Virus record (IMG/VR): IMGVR_UViG_3300035698_029580
Direction: 5' to 3' (one strand)
Length of the DNA stretch: 64,000 nucleotides
Origin: a virus
Lineage: Duplodnaviria > Caudoviricetes
Program-made: the position numbers and the translations under genes
Notes under the pieces: model-generated
Database searches by the model: none
What the model was told of the DNA's origin: nothing
What the model saw: only the letters and a program-made list of their open reading frames with translations
Shown: piece by piece, positions 49,707 through 56,850 of the stretch
Numbering within the stretch: the stretch's first letter is position 1
Layout: the number at the start of each line of letters is the position of its first letter

Positions 49707-49970
49707 ATGGAAAATCATGTACAATTAAACAAGGATAGATATAAAATGACACCCGAACAGCGTGATTATTTGGAGCGGGCGGCGAAGATGGGGACGTTTA
49801 TGCTAGACCAACCAGGGAGTATATGGATTGGAGCAGCACTACGCGACGAGCTTGGTTACATCAAGGATCAAACGATAGTTGAATGGTCTCCGGGGGGGCA
49901 CCAGTACCGCCTTACCCCTGCAGGTCGTATAGCATTGGAAAACGAGACAGAAAGTGAAAAGGACAATTAA
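49707..49970 (+). CDS. small winged-helix-like hypothetical protein with higher GC
   Basis: L...GYI...YRLTPAGR; AAGGAG RBS. Confidence 0.65.
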   Translation: MENHVQLNKDRYKMTPEQRDYLERAAKMGTFMLDQPGSIWIGAALRDELGYIKDQTIVEWSPGGHQYRLTPAGRIALENETESEKDN

Positions 49971-49971
49971 A

Positions 49972-51021
49972 ATGAAAATATTAGAAAATTCAACTATTAA
50001 AAGAGTAAAAAGTGAAAAGTATAATTATATTTTTTCTAAAAAAACTGGTTCTTTTTTAAGATGGGGAAAAACTTTAGAAGATGATCCTGAGATGTCTCCT
50101 GCAGGTCCAGAACTCGCGGATATTGAAATAACTACAATATGTCATGGAGTAAAAGGTAAACTTTGTGATTGTTGTTATAAAGCAAATAATCCAAATGGCA
50201 AGAATATGAGTTTTGAAACATTTAAAAAATTATTTCATTCTTTGCCCAAAAATCTTACTCAAATTGCGTTCGGATCTGGATCCTCAGCTATGGAAAATCC
50301 TGATTTATTTAAAATGATGGCTTATTGTCGGGAAAATGATTATAATTATGTTGTTCCTAATATAACTGTTTCTGATATTACTGAAGAAACTGCCAAAAAA
50401 CTAGCAAAGATTTGTGGTGCAGTTGCCGTCAGTAAATATGATGATAAAAATGTTTGTTATGATATAGTTAAGATGTTGACTGACAATGGGTTATCACAAA
50501 CAAATATTCATATTTGTATTTGTGAAGAAAATTATGAACAGACTTTAGAGGCATGTAAGGATTATTTAACTGATCCTCGATTAAAAAAACTTAAATCCTT
50601 TGTATTTCTCTCTCTCAAGCAAAAAGGAAGAGGAATAAAACTTACACCTTTAAGTATGGAAAAATTTAAGGAATTGGTGAATTTTTGTATTGACAATAAT
50701 GTTCCAATAGGTTTTGATTCATGTTCAGCTATGAAGTTTCTTTCTTCAGTGAAAAATCATGAAAAATTTGATCAATTTGAAATGTGTAGCGAGCCGTGTG
50801 AATCTTCGATTTTTTCGGCGTATTTTAACGTCGATGCCGAATTTTTTCCTTGTAGTTTTACTGAAGGCACTTCTGGGTGGGAAGAAGGTTTGCCTGTTAA
50901 TGGTGATTTTATAAATGATATTTGGCAGCATCCCAAAACAATAGAATTTAGAAATAAATTATTAAAAACAATTGATAATAATTCGTTTGGATGTAGAGAG
51001 TGTCCTATTTTTAAAATTTGA
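49972..51021 (+). CDS. radical SAM enzyme with SPASM/twitch domain
   Basis: DIEITTIC-x7-C-DC-CY (CX7CX2C variant); C-terminal CES...FFPCSF...W....FR...CRECP. Confidence 0.88.
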   Translation: MKILENSTIKRVKSEKYNYIFSKKTGSFLRWGKTLEDDPEMSPAGPELADIEITTICHGVKGKLCDCCYKANNPNGKNMSFETFKKLFHSLPKNLTQIAFGSGSSAMENPDLFKMMAYCRENDYNYVVPNITVSDITEETAKKLAKICGAVAVSKYDDKNVCYDIVKMLTDNGLSQTNIHICICEENYEQTLEACKDYLTDPRLKKLKSFVFLSLKQKGRGIKLTPLSMEKFKELVNFCIDNNVPIGFDSCSAMKFLSSVKNHEKFDQFEMCSEPCESSIFSAYFNVDAEFFPCSFTEGTSGWEEGLPVNGDFINDIWQHPKTIEFRNKLLKTIDNNSFGCRECPIFKI

Positions 51022-51031
51022 GGTAATAATT

Positions 51032-51136
51032 ATGAAAATTAGAAATGGTTTTGTATCTAATAGTAGTTCTACTGCATTTGTTATAGAGAATCGAACAAAT
51101 GACACAAAATATCTACTAAATTTTGTGAGGCATTGA
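51032..51136 (+). CDS. 34-aa GFVSNSS-leader peptide #1, below the ORF-track cutoff
   Basis: MKIRNGFVSNSSSTAFVIENRTNDTKYLLNFVRH*; GAGG RBS. Confidence 0.7.
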   Translation: MKIRNGFVSNSSSTAFVIENRTNDTKYLLNFVRH

Positions 51137-51146
51137 GGTAAATTAA

Positions 51147-51380
51147 ATGTGTGAAACATGGTATAAAAGTTATTGCTCTAAATGTAATACTATTAATTGG
51201 ATTTGCAATGGAGACACATCAGATTTATCAGGTGTAGACATTGATGGATATAAATGCTGGAAATGTGGAAATATAAAATATTTTGGAGATGAAGAACAAT
51301 ATGAAATTGAGAGAAATATTAATGAGTGGACAAATAAAGAAGATATTTATTGGGAGTTAGGATTAGAATTTCCAAAGTAA
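51147..51380 (+). CDS. Zn-ribbon protein, paralog of 38113-38352
   Basis: WYKSYCSKCNTINW...CWKC. Confidence 0.75.
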   Translation: MCETWYKSYCSKCNTINWICNGDTSDLSGVDIDGYKCWKCGNIKYFGDEEQYEIERNINEWTNKEDIYWELGLEFPK

Positions 51381-51392
51381 AAAGGAATAATC

Positions 51393-51740
51393 ATGAAAAT
51401 TAGAAATGGTTTCGTATCAAATAGTAGTTCTACCGCATTTATTATTACTAATGATTCTCGAGAAGTAAAAACTCTTGTAGATTTTGTTACAGAAAACCCT
51501 CAATTAATAGAAAAGTTTAAAGAACAATATGGGTGGGATAAAGATGATGATCGTTTTTCTCAAGGAAATTTAATAGTTTCTGCAGAGGAAAATAATATAG
51601 AATTTCCTCCTGGGGAAAATAAATATTGTGTTTTTGGAGATGAACAAGACACTCTTATTGGTCAGGTATTTGATTATATTTTACGAGATGGTGGAAATTC
51701 TGAAAGTTTTGGTTGGAGATTTTGTGAATATTTGAGGTGA
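51393..51740 (+). CDS. GFVSNSS-leader protein #2
   Basis: starts MKIRNGFVSNSSSTAFII. Confidence 0.85.
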   Translation: MKIRNGFVSNSSSTAFIITNDSREVKTLVDFVTENPQLIEKFKEQYGWDKDDDRFSQGNLIVSAEENNIEFPPGENKYCVFGDEQDTLIGQVFDYILRDGGNSESFGWRFCEYLR

Positions 51741-51744
51741 TATT

Positions 51745-52113
51745 ATGAAAATCAGAAATGGATTTGTTTCAAATAGTAGTTCTTCTAGTTTTATGATTAG
51801 TAAATCTGTTCTTTCTCAAGAACAGATAAGTGCTATTCATAACCATATGAATTATGCAAAAAATAATTTTCCAAATATGGTTGATAAATATTCTGGGAAA
51901 AATCAATATATTTGGTCATGGAATATTTTAGAAAATGATGAGCATATGTTTGGATTTGTTGATATGAATAACTTTGATATGAGGTATTTTTTAGAAAAAA
52001 TTGACATACTCGATAAGGATATTATTCTTAAGAGAGTATATGGCAATACATACGGAATGTCTTATCACGAAAAGATAAGTTTTATTACCAAAGAACTAAA
52101 AAAAGTTGATTAA
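51745..52113 (+). CDS. GFVSNSS-leader protein #3
   Basis: starts MKIRNGFVSNSSSSSFMI; body paralogous to #6. Confidence 0.85.
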   Translation: MKIRNGFVSNSSSSSFMISKSVLSQEQISAIHNHMNYAKNNFPNMVDKYSGKNQYIWSWNILENDEHMFGFVDMNNFDMRYFLEKIDILDKDIILKRVYGNTYGMSYHEKISFITKELKKVD

Positions 52114-52143
52114 CAATTATTTTAAATATTAGAAAGTGAAAAA

Positions 52144-52794
52144 ATGTTTAAAAAGATAAAATTATTACTAGTAATTTTTTTATTTTCTCTTCCTTCTATG
52201 GCTCTTACTGTTTCTGATGGACAATATTTTGAGACATTAGAATTCTACAACAATGATGTTGTTGACGTTTTAGGGGGAACAATAGACAACTTGACCCTCT
52301 ATGAACAAAGTCTTGCTAATGTAATAAATACAGAAGGAGATTTTCTTTCTGATGGAGCTATATGGGAAATAAATGCTTTTGATAATTCTCACATAAGTTT
52401 ATCAGGTGGCAATATTTATGAGATGAATTTATATGGGGATAGCATTACTGATGTTATAGGTGGCAGAGTAACCCTTCTAAATGTAAGTGGAAATGCAGAA
52501 TTATATTTATCTGCAGGATTATACAGAGGAACAGTGTTGGATTTAAAAGACGACACAGCACAAATTCACATGTATTGTACAGATTATAGTTTTAATCAAT
52601 TATTCCAACAGTTTAGTTTATCAGGAACATGGTCTAATGGAGATAGATTTTATATAGGTGTTGATAATGATACTTATAATAATATAAATTTTCACGTTAT
52701 AGAAAGCAATGATATTCCAGAGCCCATTATATTGTGTTTTCTTATTTTAGGAATTATAACAATTTTACAAATGGATAAATATCATGAAATTTAG
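52144..52794 (+). CDS. PEP-CTERM sorting-domain protein
   Basis: signal peptide, repeated xxSGG beta motifs, C-terminal IPEP plus TM helix. Confidence 0.8.
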   Translation: MFKKIKLLLVIFLFSLPSMALTVSDGQYFETLEFYNNDVVDVLGGTIDNLTLYEQSLANVINTEGDFLSDGAIWEINAFDNSHISLSGGNIYEMNLYGDSITDVIGGRVTLLNVSGNAELYLSAGLYRGTVLDLKDDTAQIHMYCTDYSFNQLFQQFSLSGTWSNGDRFYIGVDNDTYNNINFHVIESNDIPEPIILCFLILGIITILQMDKYHEI

Positions 52795-53161
52795 AAATGG
52801 ATTTGTATCAAATAGTAGTTCTAGTAGTTTTCTTATAGTTGGAGTTGAAGACGAAAATTTAGTGGAAAAATTAAAAGCTGCTTCTTGTGGAGATATGTCA
52901 GAACGATATGTGGAATCAGATGGTAGTATACGTTATGAGACTATGGAACATGGAGTAATACATGCGGGATTGATCAATTTTTATGGAAGTTATATTCTTG
53001 AAGATTGTTATTTATCTGGAATGCCCATAGAAGATTTATTGGAAACAATGAATTTAGCAGAAATTAGGTTGCGTTTTCAAAAATGTGTTAAAGAAAAATA
53101 CAATATAAATATAGATATGTCTGAAATATGTCTACATTATGGCGAAGTGTCTGATGAATAA
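52784..53161 (+). CDS. GFVSNSS-leader protein #4
   Basis: starts MKFRNGFVSNSSSSSFLIVG. Confidence 0.85.
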   Translation: MKFRNGFVSNSSSSSFLIVGVEDENLVEKLKAASCGDMSERYVESDGSIRYETMEHGVIHAGLINFYGSYILEDCYLSGMPIEDLLETMNLAEIRLRFQKCVKEKYNINIDMSEICLHYGEVSDE

Positions 53162-53181
53162 TTATTTAATAGGAGAAAAAA

Positions 53182-53640
53182 ATGAAAATTAGAAATGGTT
53201 TTGTAAGTAATAGTAGTTCTTCTTCCTTTGTTATTATTGGTCATCAAATAAAAATGGGAGGTAATTATGAAAAAATTTGTCGTATTTTTTTACCAGAAGA
53301 TTTTATTGAAAAAGAAATGGATAGTTGGGATTATAATAAAATGGAGGATAAGCATCAGAAAGAAAATTTTTGGGCAGAGATTTTTTATGAGAATTTAAGT
53401 GATATAAAAAATGAATTTGTGTGCTATTCATCATATAGTATACTCGGACATAGTGAAGATTGGGAGTTTTTTGGAAAACTATTATATTATAAATATGACG
53501 ATCCAGGAATTTATGATGATATTGAAGTGAAGGCTCCTCTTTCTGAAATTATTGAGGGCATAAGAAAAGAAGTTGAGAGATTGGGAATGCAAGACCAAGT
53601 AAGTGAAATAATGATTTATAGTGGAGTTAAATCAGATTAA
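53182..53640 (+). CDS. GFVSNSS-leader protein #5
   Basis: starts MKIRNGFVSNSSSSSFVIIG. Confidence 0.85.
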   Translation: MKIRNGFVSNSSSSSFVIIGHQIKMGGNYEKICRIFLPEDFIEKEMDSWDYNKMEDKHQKENFWAEIFYENLSDIKNEFVCYSSYSILGHSEDWEFFGKLLYYKYDDPGIYDDIEVKAPLSEIIEGIRKEVERLGMQDQVSEIMIYSGVKSD

Positions 53641-53641
53641 A

Positions 53642-53935
53642 ATGAAAATTAGAAATGGTTTTGTTTCAAATAGCAGTTCTTCTAGTTTTGTTATTAAAAA
53701 ATATGTTTTAAGTAAAAAACAAATAGATGCTATTTATGATCATATAAATTATGCAAAAAATAATTTTTCAGAAATGGAAGAAACAAGTGATTTAAATGAT
53801 GGATCTGCATGGGTAATAGTAGAAGGTGAAAAAAAAATATATTGCAGCACATTTATGAATAATTTTGATTTACATGAGTTTTTAATAAAAATAGGTGTTG
53901 ATGATAAAGATATTCGTGACTTGGAAGTGTTTTAA
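53642..53935 (+). CDS. GFVSNSS-leader protein #6 (start corrected)
   Basis: starts MKIRNGFVSNSSSSSFVIK. Confidence 0.85.
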   Translation: MKIRNGFVSNSSSSSFVIKKYVLSKKQIDAIYDHINYAKNNFSEMEETSDLNDGSAWVIVEGEKKIYCSTFMNNFDLHEFLIKIGVDDKDIRDLEVF

Positions 53936-53951
53936 TCTAAAGGAGAAATCA

Positions 53952-54299
53952 ATGAAATTTAGACAAGGTTTTGTATTAAATAGTGGTACAACTAGGGTTG
54001 ATGTTTATGGGACTATTATAAAGGCTGAAGATATGGAAGAAATTCTTGTAAAAAAAAATATTGTACAAAAAAATTCTGAAGGTGATCGTGATATATATGA
54101 TTTTCTTAATGACTTAACAGAAAAAGAAAAAATAGTTTGGGATCATCAAGAAGAACCTGAGGGAGAATATTATATTGGATTAAAAATAACAGAAATGGAA
54201 GACAATGAAACTCTTGACCAATTTAAAAAACGAATAGGAAACAAAATAGAAGAAATATTCGGTGAAAAATTATATGTTGAATTAATTCTTTCCACTTAA
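53952..54299 (+). CDS. GFVSNSS-leader protein #7 with a degenerate leader (start corrected)
   Basis: starts MKFRQGFVLNSGTTRV; AAGGAG RBS; body paralogous to #8 and #9. Confidence 0.85.
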   Translation: MKFRQGFVLNSGTTRVDVYGTIIKAEDMEEILVKKNIVQKNSEGDRDIYDFLNDLTEKEKIVWDHQEEPEGEYYIGLKITEMEDNETLDQFKKRIGNKIEEIFGEKLYVELILST

Positions 54300-54321
54300 T
54301 CATTGTTAAAGGAGATTTAAA

Positions 54322-54690
54322 ATGAAATTTAGACAAGGATTTGTATCAAACAGTAGTACCACGAGCTTTTGTATTTGTGGAATTAGTACAAATGAAGAAC
54401 AGTTAGAAGATTGGTTAAAAGATAAAGTTTCCGAAGAGGAGAAAGAAGAAGATGATTATGAGGTATATGATATAGTCGAAGAACTTTGTGACAAAGAAGG
54501 TCTTTCAGTGCATGCGGAACCCGATAGTTATTATTCTTATTGGATAGGACTTGATATACAAAAATTGGATGATAATGAAACGTTGAAAGATTTTAAAAAC
54601 AAAACAAAAGAAAAACTTAAAAAAATATTTGGAGATAATATTGATAAAAAAATCATTAATATTATTGAAAAAGCTTGGCATGATGGTTAA
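54322..54690 (+). CDS. GFVSNSS-leader protein #8
   Basis: starts MKFRQGFVSNSSTTSFCICGI. Confidence 0.85.
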   Translation: MKFRQGFVSNSSTTSFCICGISTNEEQLEDWLKDKVSEEEKEEDDYEVYDIVEELCDKEGLSVHAEPDSYYSYWIGLDIQKLDDNETLKDFKNKTKEKLKKIFGDNIDKKIINIIEKAWHDG

Positions 54691-54720
54691 AACATATGAT
54701 ATTCTTTAAAGGAGAAATTA

Positions 54721-55071
54721 ATGAAATTTAGACAAGGTTTTGTATCAAACAGTAGTACCACGAGCTTTTGTATTTGTGGAATTTGTCTAGATAGAAAAAA
54801 TATGGAAGAATTAATAGAAGAAAAAAATGTTGATGGAAAAGATATAAATGAGAGATTGTTGGAAAAACTTTGTAAGGCAGAGGGACTTGCCAGTATTGCT
54901 GATCCAGAAGATGAGTATTATTATATTGGAATTAATGTAGAAGATATGGATGAGGATAAGACAATAAGAGATGTTAAAAAAGAAGCAAAGGAAAAAATAA
55001 AAAAATTGTTCGGAGATAATGCTGATAAACATAATGTTAGAGTCATTACTGATGGTTGGTATAATGGTTGA
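54721..55071 (+). CDS. GFVSNSS-leader protein #9
   Basis: starts MKFRQGFVSNSSTTSFCICGI. Confidence 0.85.
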   Translation: MKFRQGFVSNSSTTSFCICGICLDRKNMEELIEEKNVDGKDINERLLEKLCKAEGLASIADPEDEYYYIGINVEDMDEDKTIRDVKKEAKEKIKKLFGDNADKHNVRVITDGWYNG

Positions 55072-55121: not shown

Positions 55122-55817
55122 ATGAGTGGAAAAGTGCAAGTTCATCATTTAATTATTTTGGACAAAAGTAGTTCAATGCTAGAAGTTTGTAGTGAAACTA
55201 TTGATGGATGTAATAAACAATTTGATGTAATTCGTAAAATGTCAGAAGAAAATCCAGAACAAGAACATTTTGTTTCTATGGTCATATTTAGCTATTCTCA
55301 TAAAATAGATATGGAAACAATATGGATGAAAAAATCAGATGAAGTGGAAAATATTAATGAAGAAAGTTATGTTCCTCAGGGATACACGGCTTTATTTGAT
55401 GCCATAGGTAAAGGCGTGACAAAACTACAAACAGAAATACAGGAACAATTAAATAATAGAGGTGCTAGAGTTGTTGTTACAATATTGACAGATGGTTATG
55501 AAAATAATTCTCAAGAATTTACTGGTAAGAAGATTAAATCTTTAATAGATGAACATCAAAAAGGTGGTTTATGGACAATTACGATGGCTGGATGTACTGA
55601 TGATGTATTCAATGTAGCAGATAATCTTAATATTTGCAGAGGAAATGTTCTTAAATATGATATGGGAGCAGTAGGAACTACTAATGCTTTTGCTAAAATG
55701 GCAAAGAGTCGTTGCATGTATTGTTCTTCCATAGGGACAGATGTAGAATTAAAAGCGACATCAAGTTATTATTCTCAAGATGAAGAAAAGAAAGATGAAG
55801 AAAAGAAAGATGATTAA
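55122..55817 (+). CDS. von Willebrand factor A domain protein
   Basis: DKSSS MIDAS, GYTALFDAIG, ILTDGYENNSQE. Confidence 0.9.
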   Translation: MSGKVQVHHLIILDKSSSMLEVCSETIDGCNKQFDVIRKMSEENPEQEHFVSMVIFSYSHKIDMETIWMKKSDEVENINEESYVPQGYTALFDAIGKGVTKLQTEIQEQLNNRGARVVVTILTDGYENNSQEFTGKKIKSLIDEHQKGGLWTITMAGCTDDVFNVADNLNICRGNVLKYDMGAVGTTNAFAKMAKSRCMYCSSIGTDVELKATSSYYSQDEEKKDEEKKDD

Positions 55818-56074
55818 AATTTTCTAATTGGACATCTAAAGTGGGGGTCCTGGAATATAATTTCTAGGACCTTTCCACTTTTTTTACATCTTTTTTTAAC
55901 TGTTTTTTGTGGAGGTCTAGTTGTTTTTGTCATAAAGTAGATTTTATCAACATGAGGACAACTTTTACATATTTTTGGTCTAATATCTAGAAGTTTAATT
56001 CTTTTGTCTTTTAGTATTGGTTTAGCACTTTTATTTTTTATTGCAGAAGCTCTTTTTCCACAGCCACATCCCAT
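55814..56074 (-). CDS. small basic Cys-rich protein
   Basis: MGCGCGK...CKSCP...C...CP. Confidence 0.7.
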   Translation of the reverse strand: MGCGCGKRASAIKNKSAKPILKDKRIKLLDIRPKICKSCPHVDKIYFMTKTTRPPQKTVKKRCKKSGKVLEIIFQDPHFRCPIRKF

Positions 56075-56850
56075 TATCTAACTCCTCTCATTTTTTGGAT
56101 TAGGTTATTTCTTCTAATTCTTCCTACTTGATGATACCATTTTGAATCTACCATTTCATCGGCAGCTTTTTGGAAATCTCTTCTTATTAAAGCTTGTCTA
56201 AATCTTTTAAACTGTCTTAATCTATTTGGTCCCATAGCAAATGCCATATCAATAATAACTTGTTGAACAGCATCATCATATGTTTCAAAATTGGGTAAAA
56301 AAGAATGTGCTATATCGGAGGCTTCGAAAAAGGTATATTCAAATAATTTATTTATTTGTTCGTCTGTAAGACCAACTTTTCCATTAATAATGTCATTATA
56401 ATTTAGTCCAAAACTTTCTATTTTTTGTTTAGCATCTGGTCTATTTAACATATATCCTATTCCTATTGTTTTGTTTCCTAATGGACCGGGATATACAAAA
56501 TTTCTTCTTCCCTCATGCTGAGATATCATATCTCTAGTTTTTTGAATAAAATTATTTTGATCTGTATTTTTTCTTTCTACGGAAGTTCCTTGGGGATTTT
56601 CTTGTGTTGCAGGAATATTTTGTTGTGTTATTTCTTGTGTTTGTTGAGGGGTTGTATTTTCTTGTTTTTTTATTTCTTGGACACCTTGTATTACTGTTTG
56701 GGGAGATTGTTTAAAAAGATCTTTAACTTCTAGAATTCCTATTCCCCATAGACCTGCCAAACCTAATAAAGCTGTTAGTCCAGTCATTTGAACAAATCTA
56801 TTCCATCTAAACTCTTCTTCTGCTATTTTTGTTTGATTGTACCAATTCAT
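56074..56850 (-). CDS. T4-type lysozyme (GH24) with MNWY tag and N-terminal hydrophobic segment
   Basis: HEG...Y...G..TIGIG, DMAF.MG, AADEMVDSKWYHQVG. Confidence 0.85.
   Translation of the reverse strand: MNWYNQTKIAEEEFRWNRFVQMTGLTALLGLAGLWGIGILEVKDLFKQSPQTVIQGVQEIKKQENTTPQQTQEITQQNIPATQENPQGTSVERKNTDQNNFIQKTRDMISQHEGRRNFVYPGPLGNKTIGIGYMLNRPDAKQKIESFGLNYNDIINGKVGLTDEQINKLFEYTFFEASDIAHSFLPNFETYDDAVQQVIIDMAFAMGPNRLRQFKRFRQALIRRDFQKAADEMVDSKWYHQVGRIRRNNLIQKMRGVR

Follow-up and report, generated by a model that had tools for sequence, protein, structure and literature searches.

What ties a phage-encoded radical S-adenosylmethionine (SAM) enzyme to the row of small, dissimilar proteins encoded directly behind it? 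The question is raised by a 64,000-nucleotide (nt) stretch of a Caudoviricetes virus (IMG/VR record IMGVR_UViG_3300035698_029580; hereafter the window), where a radical-SAM gene (positions 49972..51021, + strand, 349 amino acids (aa)) precedes nine open reading frames (ORFs), the last ending at 55071, that begin with versions of one 16-residue peptide, which we call the tag. We propose that the enzyme docks on the tail formed by the start of this tag and most likely modifies it, with a single enzyme for many tagged proteins, and we put the probability of this reading at roughly 60%. We favour it because the tail is invariant, free and fixed at Met1, the bodies behind it are unrelated, the enzyme gene is the single recurring partner, the enzyme has a maturase-like fold, and a variant of the tag tracks one clade of the enzyme.

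The system appears to be uncharacterised, as the initial annotation, made from the letters of the window alone, had supposed: motif and keyword searches found no publication describing enzyme and tag together, and the paper on phages KP15/KP27, in which the system occurs, is silent on the enzyme.

The tag and its linkage to the enzyme gene

The tag was defined on 225 tagged ORFs taken from 54 loci, the window and 53 loci related to it. Its consensus, M-K-[IV]-R-x-G-F-V-S-N-S-S-S-[ST]-S-F-[IV]-[IV], starts at the initiator Met without exception, and M1, K2, R4, G6, F7, V8, S9, N10, S11, S12 and F16 vary rarely or not at all. To some extent the search pattern itself enforced this constancy; a looser pattern, applied as well, recovered rare W7, Y7, L7, A9 and T9 variants and one G6S, and the loose motif gave 273 matches in real sequence against 0 in a reversed control. 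Across 277 tags, position 7 is Phe in 274, with one Tyr and one Trp among the rest, and position 9 is Ser in 251, Thr in 21 and Ala in 4. Glu is absent from the tag.

Each Ser position uses all six Ser codons, R4 draws on both Arg codon boxes and G6 on all four Gly codons (225 copies, 54 loci). Selection therefore acts on the peptide, as the initial annotation had concluded from the varying Ser codons in the window, and the same codon diversity rules out recent gene conversion, or conservation of an RNA element, as the cause of the pattern. The G6S tag, MKIRASFVSN..., belongs to a class-0 protein (L015:9440-9799, same contig as L114) whose contig also has the enzyme.

Linkage between tag and enzyme was measured from both sides. 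Patterns derived from the tag picked out 56 loci on 54 IMG/VR contigs, with the enzyme gene within 10 kb in 36 of the 54 contigs and elsewhere on the contig in 5 more (41/54 in total); it is present in both ≥90%-complete contigs among those checked contig-wide, and the 13 contigs that lack it are mostly fragments (3–49% complete). Searching instead with an enzyme profile gave 378 IMG/VR stretches, of which the best 80 were examined. Tag genes lie within 10 kb in 73 of these 80 loci, all of them (273/273) on the enzyme's strand, and the contig with the G6S tag (L114) together with four of five further contigs that hold tags elsewhere brings the count to 78/80. Co-occurrence across genomes, which the initial annotation had put forward as a check, is thus seen from both ends, and tagged proteins do not commonly stand without the enzyme. 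Arrays reach 14 tag genes per phage, and no leader peptidase or exporter is conserved beside them, the radical-SAM gene being the sole recurring family (40 loci, against 7 for the next family found there). We regard the link between enzyme and tag as strongly supported by these genomic comparisons.

The same neighbourhoods bear on whether the peptide could be a targeting, packaging or degradation signal for other machinery, with the radical-SAM gene linked only indirectly. A precedent for such sorting exists in the internal-protein locus of phage T4, which encodes diverse small proteins with a common N-terminal decapeptide. However, the radical-SAM gene is the only conserved partner here, and bacterial chromosomes, for which capsid packaging has no relevance, also carry enzyme and tag as a two-gene cassette. 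T4-type prohead-protease sites, moreover, end in Glu, which the tag does not contain. A sorting or stability signal is in our judgement quite improbable.

The bacterial form carries Thr at position 9. A scan of prokaryotic genomes returned nine loci with one to four proteins starting MKIR[NQ]GFVTNSSST[SN]F, in Acetatifactor muris DSM 23669 and in metagenome-assembled genomes labelled Lachnospiraceae, Clostridia, Melainabacteria, Pseudomonadota and Myxococcota; the radical-SAM gene lies downstream of the Thr9 gene(s) in 8/9 loci and ~1 kb upstream in the other (L081). Enzymes of this clade are ~26% identical to that of the window, and the A. muris enzyme (L070) scores above cut-offs for Radical_SAM (57.3 bits), Pfam SPASM (34 bits) and TIGR04085. 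The initial annotation had described a phage system: phage-borne arrays bear this out, but the system is not restricted to phages, the pair being present in bacterial chromosomes as well.

Thr9 also occurs outside bacterial chromosomes, in a viral contig with a Thr9-clade enzyme and Thr9 tags only (L048) and in a short fragment with Thr9 tags only and no radical-SAM gene (L057). All 21 Thr9 tags fall in loci of one deep enzyme clade or in this one fragment, and Ser9 is absent there. In an enzyme tree from a quick IQ-TREE maximum-likelihood run, the Thr9-linked enzymes form one side of a single branch (SH-aLRT 100), so that tag variant and enzyme clade partition perfectly among the sequences compared.

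The enzyme, the tail and the folded bodies

The window enzyme is a member of phrog_7293 (PHROGs, E 6e-102), a family without assigned function. Against Pfam PF04055 (Radical_SAM) it reaches 16.5 bits, below the gathering cut-off of 29.5; this is sequence divergence, a reading we adopt because the radical-SAM fold and the Cys motif are both present, and its class assignment rests on homologues and structure rather than on Pfam. The cluster motif C57, C65 and C68, spaced CX7CX2C in the window, is invariant or nearly so in a 32-sequence alignment, and the first spacer varies among homologues from the canonical CX3CX2C to CX12CX2C within the same alignment columns. The wider family comprises at least 2,151 clusters (90% identity) at E up to 1e-5, some of whose members carry Pfam SPASM.

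Four C-terminal Cys are invariant in the phage clade (C251, C276, C294 and C344), which by sequence would suffice for one auxiliary cluster of the twitch-like kind and not for a seven-Cys SPASM domain. PF13186 (SPASM) gave no match in the window enzyme at E <0.1, and some homologues of 56–58% identity carry PF13186 or TIGR04085 matches. The SPASM label of the initial annotation thus holds in that a Cys-rich auxiliary-cluster region is present at the C-terminus, but the phage clade has four Cys there, not the seven of SPASM.

An AlphaFold2 model of the enzyme was obtained at high confidence (predicted local distance difference test (pLDDT) 94, predicted template modelling (TM) score 0.91). Structural comparison with VIA placed SuiB first (Z 23.6, with 310 residues aligned from residue 4 and the N-terminal domain included), ahead of SkfB (Z 21.3), the anaerobic sulfatase-maturating enzyme (anSME; 19.0), CteB (18.9), ChlB (18.3) and PqqE (17.2). 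All matches listed above about Z 12 are radical-SAM enzymes, so the partial TIM-barrel core fold of this superfamily is present in the model, and the C-terminus aligns structurally with SuiB, SkfB and anSME. By sequence, phmmer with the window protein alone had no PDB match at E up to 1; weak matches, to BtrN (E 0.005, twitch region) and SkfB (E 0.04), were all that a profile of the family returned.

The enzyme begins with a ~45-aa beta-strand domain, whose four strands (residues 2-31) lie inside the range that aligns with the N-terminal parts of SuiB and SkfB; no helices are present of the kind found in a full winged-helix RRE, the recognition element of maturases of RiPPs (peptides synthesized by ribosomes and modified post-translationally). 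Maturase models of the FxsB, XyeB and ChlB types are absent among the NCBIfam matches listed for the window and A. muris enzymes, and the structural score of ChlB is no better than that of anSME. On the model, the enzyme is assigned to the peptide- or protein-modifying radical-SAM enzymes of the SPASM/twitch structural class.

This fold also bears on a glycyl-radical scheme, in which the enzyme would be an activase abstracting hydrogen from Gly6 (R-x-G-F) to yield radical-bearing proteins. R4, G6 and the aromatic residue 7 are nearly invariant and loosely resemble RVxG[FY], the glycyl-radical signature. The spacing, however, is R-x-G and not R-x-x-G, a G6S tag occurs naturally, and pyruvate formate-lyase activase reaches only Z 12.8, against 23.6 for SuiB. 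Glycyl-radical enzymes, furthermore, shelter their radical in large barrels, which the small and diverse bodies here cannot do. We consider this scheme extremely unlikely.

The median length of the tagged proteins is 124 aa, the longest having 321 aa. After the first 18 residues had been trimmed, BLAST sorted 220 bodies into 72 clusters, and about eight classes recur; the classes include Cys-rich CxxC-type and purely alpha/beta types. Profile-profile comparison with hhalign gave a probability below 1% between the three main classes, whose bodies are, at the level of sequence profiles, without detectable homology to one another. Class 0 is single-copy in 22 loci and has the conserved body motifs FGDEDGT and DYILRDGG. 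Searches of the tagged proteins against Pfam, NCBIfam and PADLOC gave no match, and PHROGs gave weak N-terminal matches to phrog_7397 and nothing else.

Structure was modelled for one body class, class 0, using the second copy in the window (copy #2; AlphaFold2 on a 39-sequence alignment, pLDDT 86). The body is confidently predicted (pLDDT 88-97), residues 1-3 and 5-10 fall below 50, the mark of a free tail, and strand 1 of an alpha/beta domain runs from residue 13 to residue 20. In this model the tag has two parts, an invariant unstructured decapeptide and a Ser run leading into strand 1. For the fold of the class-0 body, the PDB and BFVD held no convincing match (Foldseek E >0.05; best Z 3.9 in a wide VIA search). 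Rossmann-like, DUF7167 or receiver-like folds for the bodies were set aside at Atlas TM scores of ~0.5 or lower.

Could the tagged proteins nonetheless be one fast-diverging family whose N-terminal strand is merely its most constrained part, the enzyme link reflecting shared cassette ancestry with no substrate contact? The position of strand 1 at residues 13-20 would fit this, as would the Atlas structure matches, which begin at residues 6-10 (copy #8 of the window, to viral clusters). Yet residues 1-10 are invariant while modelled as free, the bodies share no profile-profile signal and include Cys-rich CxxC-type as against purely alpha/beta classes, the tag is fixed at Met1, and the pairing is kept in otherwise unrelated genomes and across the 26%-identity split of the enzyme. 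A single family is therefore highly improbable, and so is the case raised in the initial annotation that the motif is just a buried strand of one shared fold, given the free residues 1-10 in the model and the lack of profile similarity between bodies.

The size and folding of the bodies likewise speak to a prochlorosin-type RiPP logic, in which the N-terminus would be a recognition leader and modification would fall in the variable bodies. The closest folds are indeed RiPP maturases, and multi-precursor RiPP families combine a conserved leader with a hypervariable remainder, one enzyme acting on many substrates. The bodies here, however, are domains of 60-300 residues, the modelled one confidently folded, with no motif common to the classes, and neither a leader peptidase nor an exporter is conserved nearby. 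We give the leader-only scheme little credence.

Folded, unrelated bodies in recurring classes that are often single-copy per genome are also what would be expected of functional modules. The tail might then dock unchanged, with the bodies as interchangeable specificity or regulatory subunits bringing host proteins, nucleic acids or small molecules to the enzyme, and the co-occurrence data would be the same as under tail modification. Against this stand the closest structures, SuiB, SkfB, CteB, ChlB and anSME, all of which modify the peptide they bind, and the tail itself, which is short, unstructured and Ser-rich and so resembles a substrate more than an interface. No SPASM/twitch enzyme is known to us to use exchangeable targeting subunits, which counts further against such an adaptor role, and we consider it unlikely.

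These alternatives explain the exclusive partnership with the enzyme and the free, invariant tail less well than tail docking and modification do. In the mechanism we favour, the invariant N-terminal peptide would be the docking site, and most likely the modification site, on every tagged protein; residues 1-10 would form a free tail able to enter the enzyme, and the Ser run would join it to strand 1 of the folded body. A single enzyme would act on as many as 14 small proteins in a phage, unrelated to one another and mostly acidic (in the window, on eight that are intact), and this processing would give unrelated bodies one common chemical feature. Both the binding of the tail by the enzyme and its modification are steps that we infer.

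As to the chemistry, our guess is that a radical reaction cross-links or oxidises side chains around F7-V8-S9/N10-S12, an example being an aromatic-to-C-beta three-residue cyclophane on F-x-S/T. Triceptide synthases cross-link three-residue motifs of the aromatic-x-x type (motif definition in PMC11499958), and F7-V8-S9 fits this definition. The aromatic-x-Ser/Thr triplet is present in the tag as a pattern only, the reaction being a separate matter.

Several observations weigh against tail docking and modification. Two long contigs with tag genes, L035 (261 kb, 79% complete by CheckV) and L059 (250 kb, 88% complete), are radical-SAM-negative even by profile search, which leaves two possibilities, an enzyme gene in the part missing from the contig or tags that occur without the enzyme. 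In the cultured coliphage RB16, the tagged genes lie ~20 kb from the enzyme gene. Residues 13-18 are modelled as a core strand, and part of the conservation could thus be structural. The rare Ala9 tags (4/277) argue against a mechanism that requires the Ser9 hydroxyl; as a lead, they fit a C-beta cross-link and not an obligatory oxidation of Ser9. Finally, the S9/T9 split falls on a single branch and is one evolutionary event, not repeated co-variation; more telling than the partition is that the adjacency of enzyme and tag persists across the deepest split of the enzyme family.

The array in the window and carriers elsewhere

The anatomy of the array agrees with the description in the initial annotation. 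The ORF listing contains all nine co-oriented ORFs directly after the radical-SAM gene, on the + strand and with the starts given there, and 8/9 begin MK[IF]R[NQ]GFVSNSS[ST][ST][SA]F; a first copy of only 34 aa, a degenerate leader on the seventh, and the subfamilies #1/#2, #3/#6 and #7-9 were likewise recovered, the last by BLAST clustering. The bodies are mostly acidic, as had been claimed, with an isoelectric point (pI) of 4.4-5.1 in 7/9 tagged proteins; #3 (pI 7.9) and the remnant #1 (pI 10.3) are the other two. Spacing between array genes is 1-30 nt. The enzyme gene itself, identified from the ORF listing, PHROGs, the alignment and the AlphaFold2 model, has an in-frame GTG at 49954 as an alternative start codon.

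The first tag gene (#1, 51032..51136, 34 aa, class 0) is a 5' remnant: it is 69% identical to residues 1-32 of copy #2, with the match confined there, and a TGA terminates the ORF, downstream of which homology to #2 continues in none of the frames. An untagged ORF (51147..51380, + strand, 77 aa) occupies the expected place of the missing body. It is acidic and Cys-rich, with six Cys as CxxC pairs in a zinc-ribbon-like arrangement, and may have displaced the body of #1; it has no homologue among the other tag loci and is placed outside the conserved module.

Tag gene #2 (51393..51740, 115 aa, class 0) is followed by #3 (51745..52113, 122 aa, class 1), which shares a BLAST cluster with #6 and with members of 19 other loci. 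Behind #3 stands a second untagged ORF (52144..52794, + strand, 216 aa) whose N-terminus resembles a signal peptide and whose C-terminal tail is hydrophobic; it overlaps tag gene #4 by 11 nt. Pfam and PHROG searches with this ORF were empty and it is absent at related loci, which places it, too, outside the module. The acidic #4 (52784..53161, 125 aa) and #5 (53182..53640, 152 aa) come next, the nearest Atlas clusters of #5 being viral hypothetical proteins, and then #6 (53642..53935, 97 aa, class 1).

The array closes with three class-3 genes, #7 (53952..54299, 115 aa), #8 (54322..54690, 122 aa) and #9 (54721..55071, 116 aa), all on the + strand like those before them. The tag of #7 has decayed: its N-terminus reads MKFRQGFVLNSGTTRV, with the changes S9L, S12G, S15R and F16V, and Leu9 is unique to this copy among the 277 tags. 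Recognition of this tag by the enzyme has probably been lost.

Downstream, a consensus scan found a terminator-like hairpin (55843..55884, + strand; 13-bp stem, then a T run) after the gene at 55122-55817, and this likely ends the + strand transcription unit that contains the array. A promoter scan of the window was uninformative (58 sites, 66 expected). The window region has no nucleotide match among GenBank phages, and none of its neighbouring genes recurs with the module at other loci. An ORF on the - strand downstream of the array (56074-56850) starts MNWYN.

In cultured phages, the enzyme is held by 173 GenBank records, mostly of T4-like Klebsiella, Enterobacter, Cronobacter and Escherichia phages. 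The system was found in RB16, KP15/KP27 and Vibrio phage D479; D479 has five tagged genes, and RB16 has the enzyme RB16p156 and the tagged RB16p106 and RB16p111. The two tagged RB16 genes flank RB16p109 (L068:2611-7001; HM134276.1 66610-71000), which encodes a 739-aa protein annotated as von Willebrand factor A (vWA)-like. By tblastn no vWA gene is conserved across the other loci, and the RB16 vWA link is therefore not counted in the module. In four IMG/VR contigs (L028, L029, L139 and L140), tag genes are broken by TAG codons alone. Readthrough of TAG restores full-length class-0 homology ending at TAA, and on this sequence evidence TAG probably encodes an amino acid in these phages.

In bacteria, seven of the Thr9 loci keep a conserved order of four genes, namely a STAND/NACHT NTPase, a ~140-aa gene, the Thr9 protein and the radical-SAM enzyme (A. 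muris DSM 23669, L070:5444-16018, NZ_JANJZD010000002.1; also L071-L074, L076 and L078). The NTPase matches PADLOC Avs2 (E 9e-16); in Lachnospiraceae its N-terminus is trypsin-like. On one side of the A. muris unit lies a metallo-beta-lactamase gene of LmuA/Avs1a-like type, on the other a type IV restriction enzyme, a setting with the gene content of a defence island. The four-gene unit is a candidate immune module.

Relation to known systems and possible role

Leader-guided RiPP maturases of the radical-SAM class are the nearest characterised counterparts. SuiB/StrB (streptide), SkfB, CteB and ChlB/triceptide synthases give the best structural matches, their enzyme gene adjoins genes with a common N-terminal recognition segment, and one such enzyme can serve several precursors. 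The present system differs in that the partners are proteins of ~80-320 aa, the modelled one folded, and not short precursor peptides, and in that the invariant part is the very N-terminus, where the reaction itself probably takes place. It also lacks a conserved peptidase, exporter or full RRE domain and is mainly phage-borne, in arrays of up to 14 genes, and the phage-clade enzyme keeps four auxiliary Cys and has negligible sequence similarity to these maturases.

anSME (Z 19.0) offers a second comparison, as a SPASM-class enzyme that acts on whole proteins through a short conserved Ser/Cys motif, one enzyme for many substrates. The initial annotation had cited such maturases when tying one radical-SAM enzyme to many proteins through a shared N-terminus; the tie is upheld by the two-way genomic coupling, but the sulfatase-type motif, (C/S)xPxR or more broadly (C/S)-x-(P/A)-x-R, is absent, the tag consensus having no Pro/Ala-x-Arg after any Ser. 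The partners here are not sulfatases, anSME has two auxiliary clusters where the present enzyme has four invariant Cys, and the rare Ala9 tags speak against an obligatory Ser9 oxidation.

A third parallel is found in vWA-MoxR (VMAP) conflict systems, where FxSxx-COOH peptides are paired with radical-SAM-SPASM enzymes (Kaur et al. 2020, PMC7159879). The tag likewise reads F-V-S-N-S beside a radical-SAM gene, and a vWA-like gene lies between the two tagged genes of RB16. Unlike FxSxx, which is C-terminal on a processed peptide and accompanied by a metallopeptidase, the tag is N-terminal on whole proteins; no vWA gene is conserved across the loci, and FxsB-family models are absent among the NCBIfam matches listed.

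T4 internal proteins, finally, are small, fast-evolving proteins encoded in tandem that have only a short N-terminal capsid-targeting sequence in common, much as the tagged phage proteins share only an N-terminal peptide. In contrast to the tag, which goes with a radical-SAM gene and is also bacterial, the T4 sequence is read by the prohead and its protease and has no dedicated enzyme gene.

The STAND-NTPase neighbours in bacteria and the tightly packed gene run of the window suggest a role in phage-host conflict. A broader reading is possible, though we advance it tentatively and with more doubt than confidence: the system might be a protein-level counterpart of RiPPs in this conflict, the tail being made a covalent warhead or handle (a Phe7-Ser/Thr9 cyclophane or a Ser-derived carbonyl) on dozens of unrelated effectors, with the bacterial Thr9/STAND form as an immune module using the same chemistry.

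Should the tail be modified, a widespread post-translational system, apparently unpublished, would be at work on whole proteins instead of short peptides, and the defined 16-residue peptide may be the site of new radical chemistry. Its presence in tractable cultured phages and in the cultured gut bacterium Acetatifactor muris brings it within reach of experiment, and a tag this short and portable could be put to use in the enzyme-directed modification of proteins. In its STAND-NTPase-linked bacterial form the system is a candidate new immune module, and for hundreds of small acidic phage proteins now listed as 'hypothetical', the favoured reading, if true, would provide a first functional handle.

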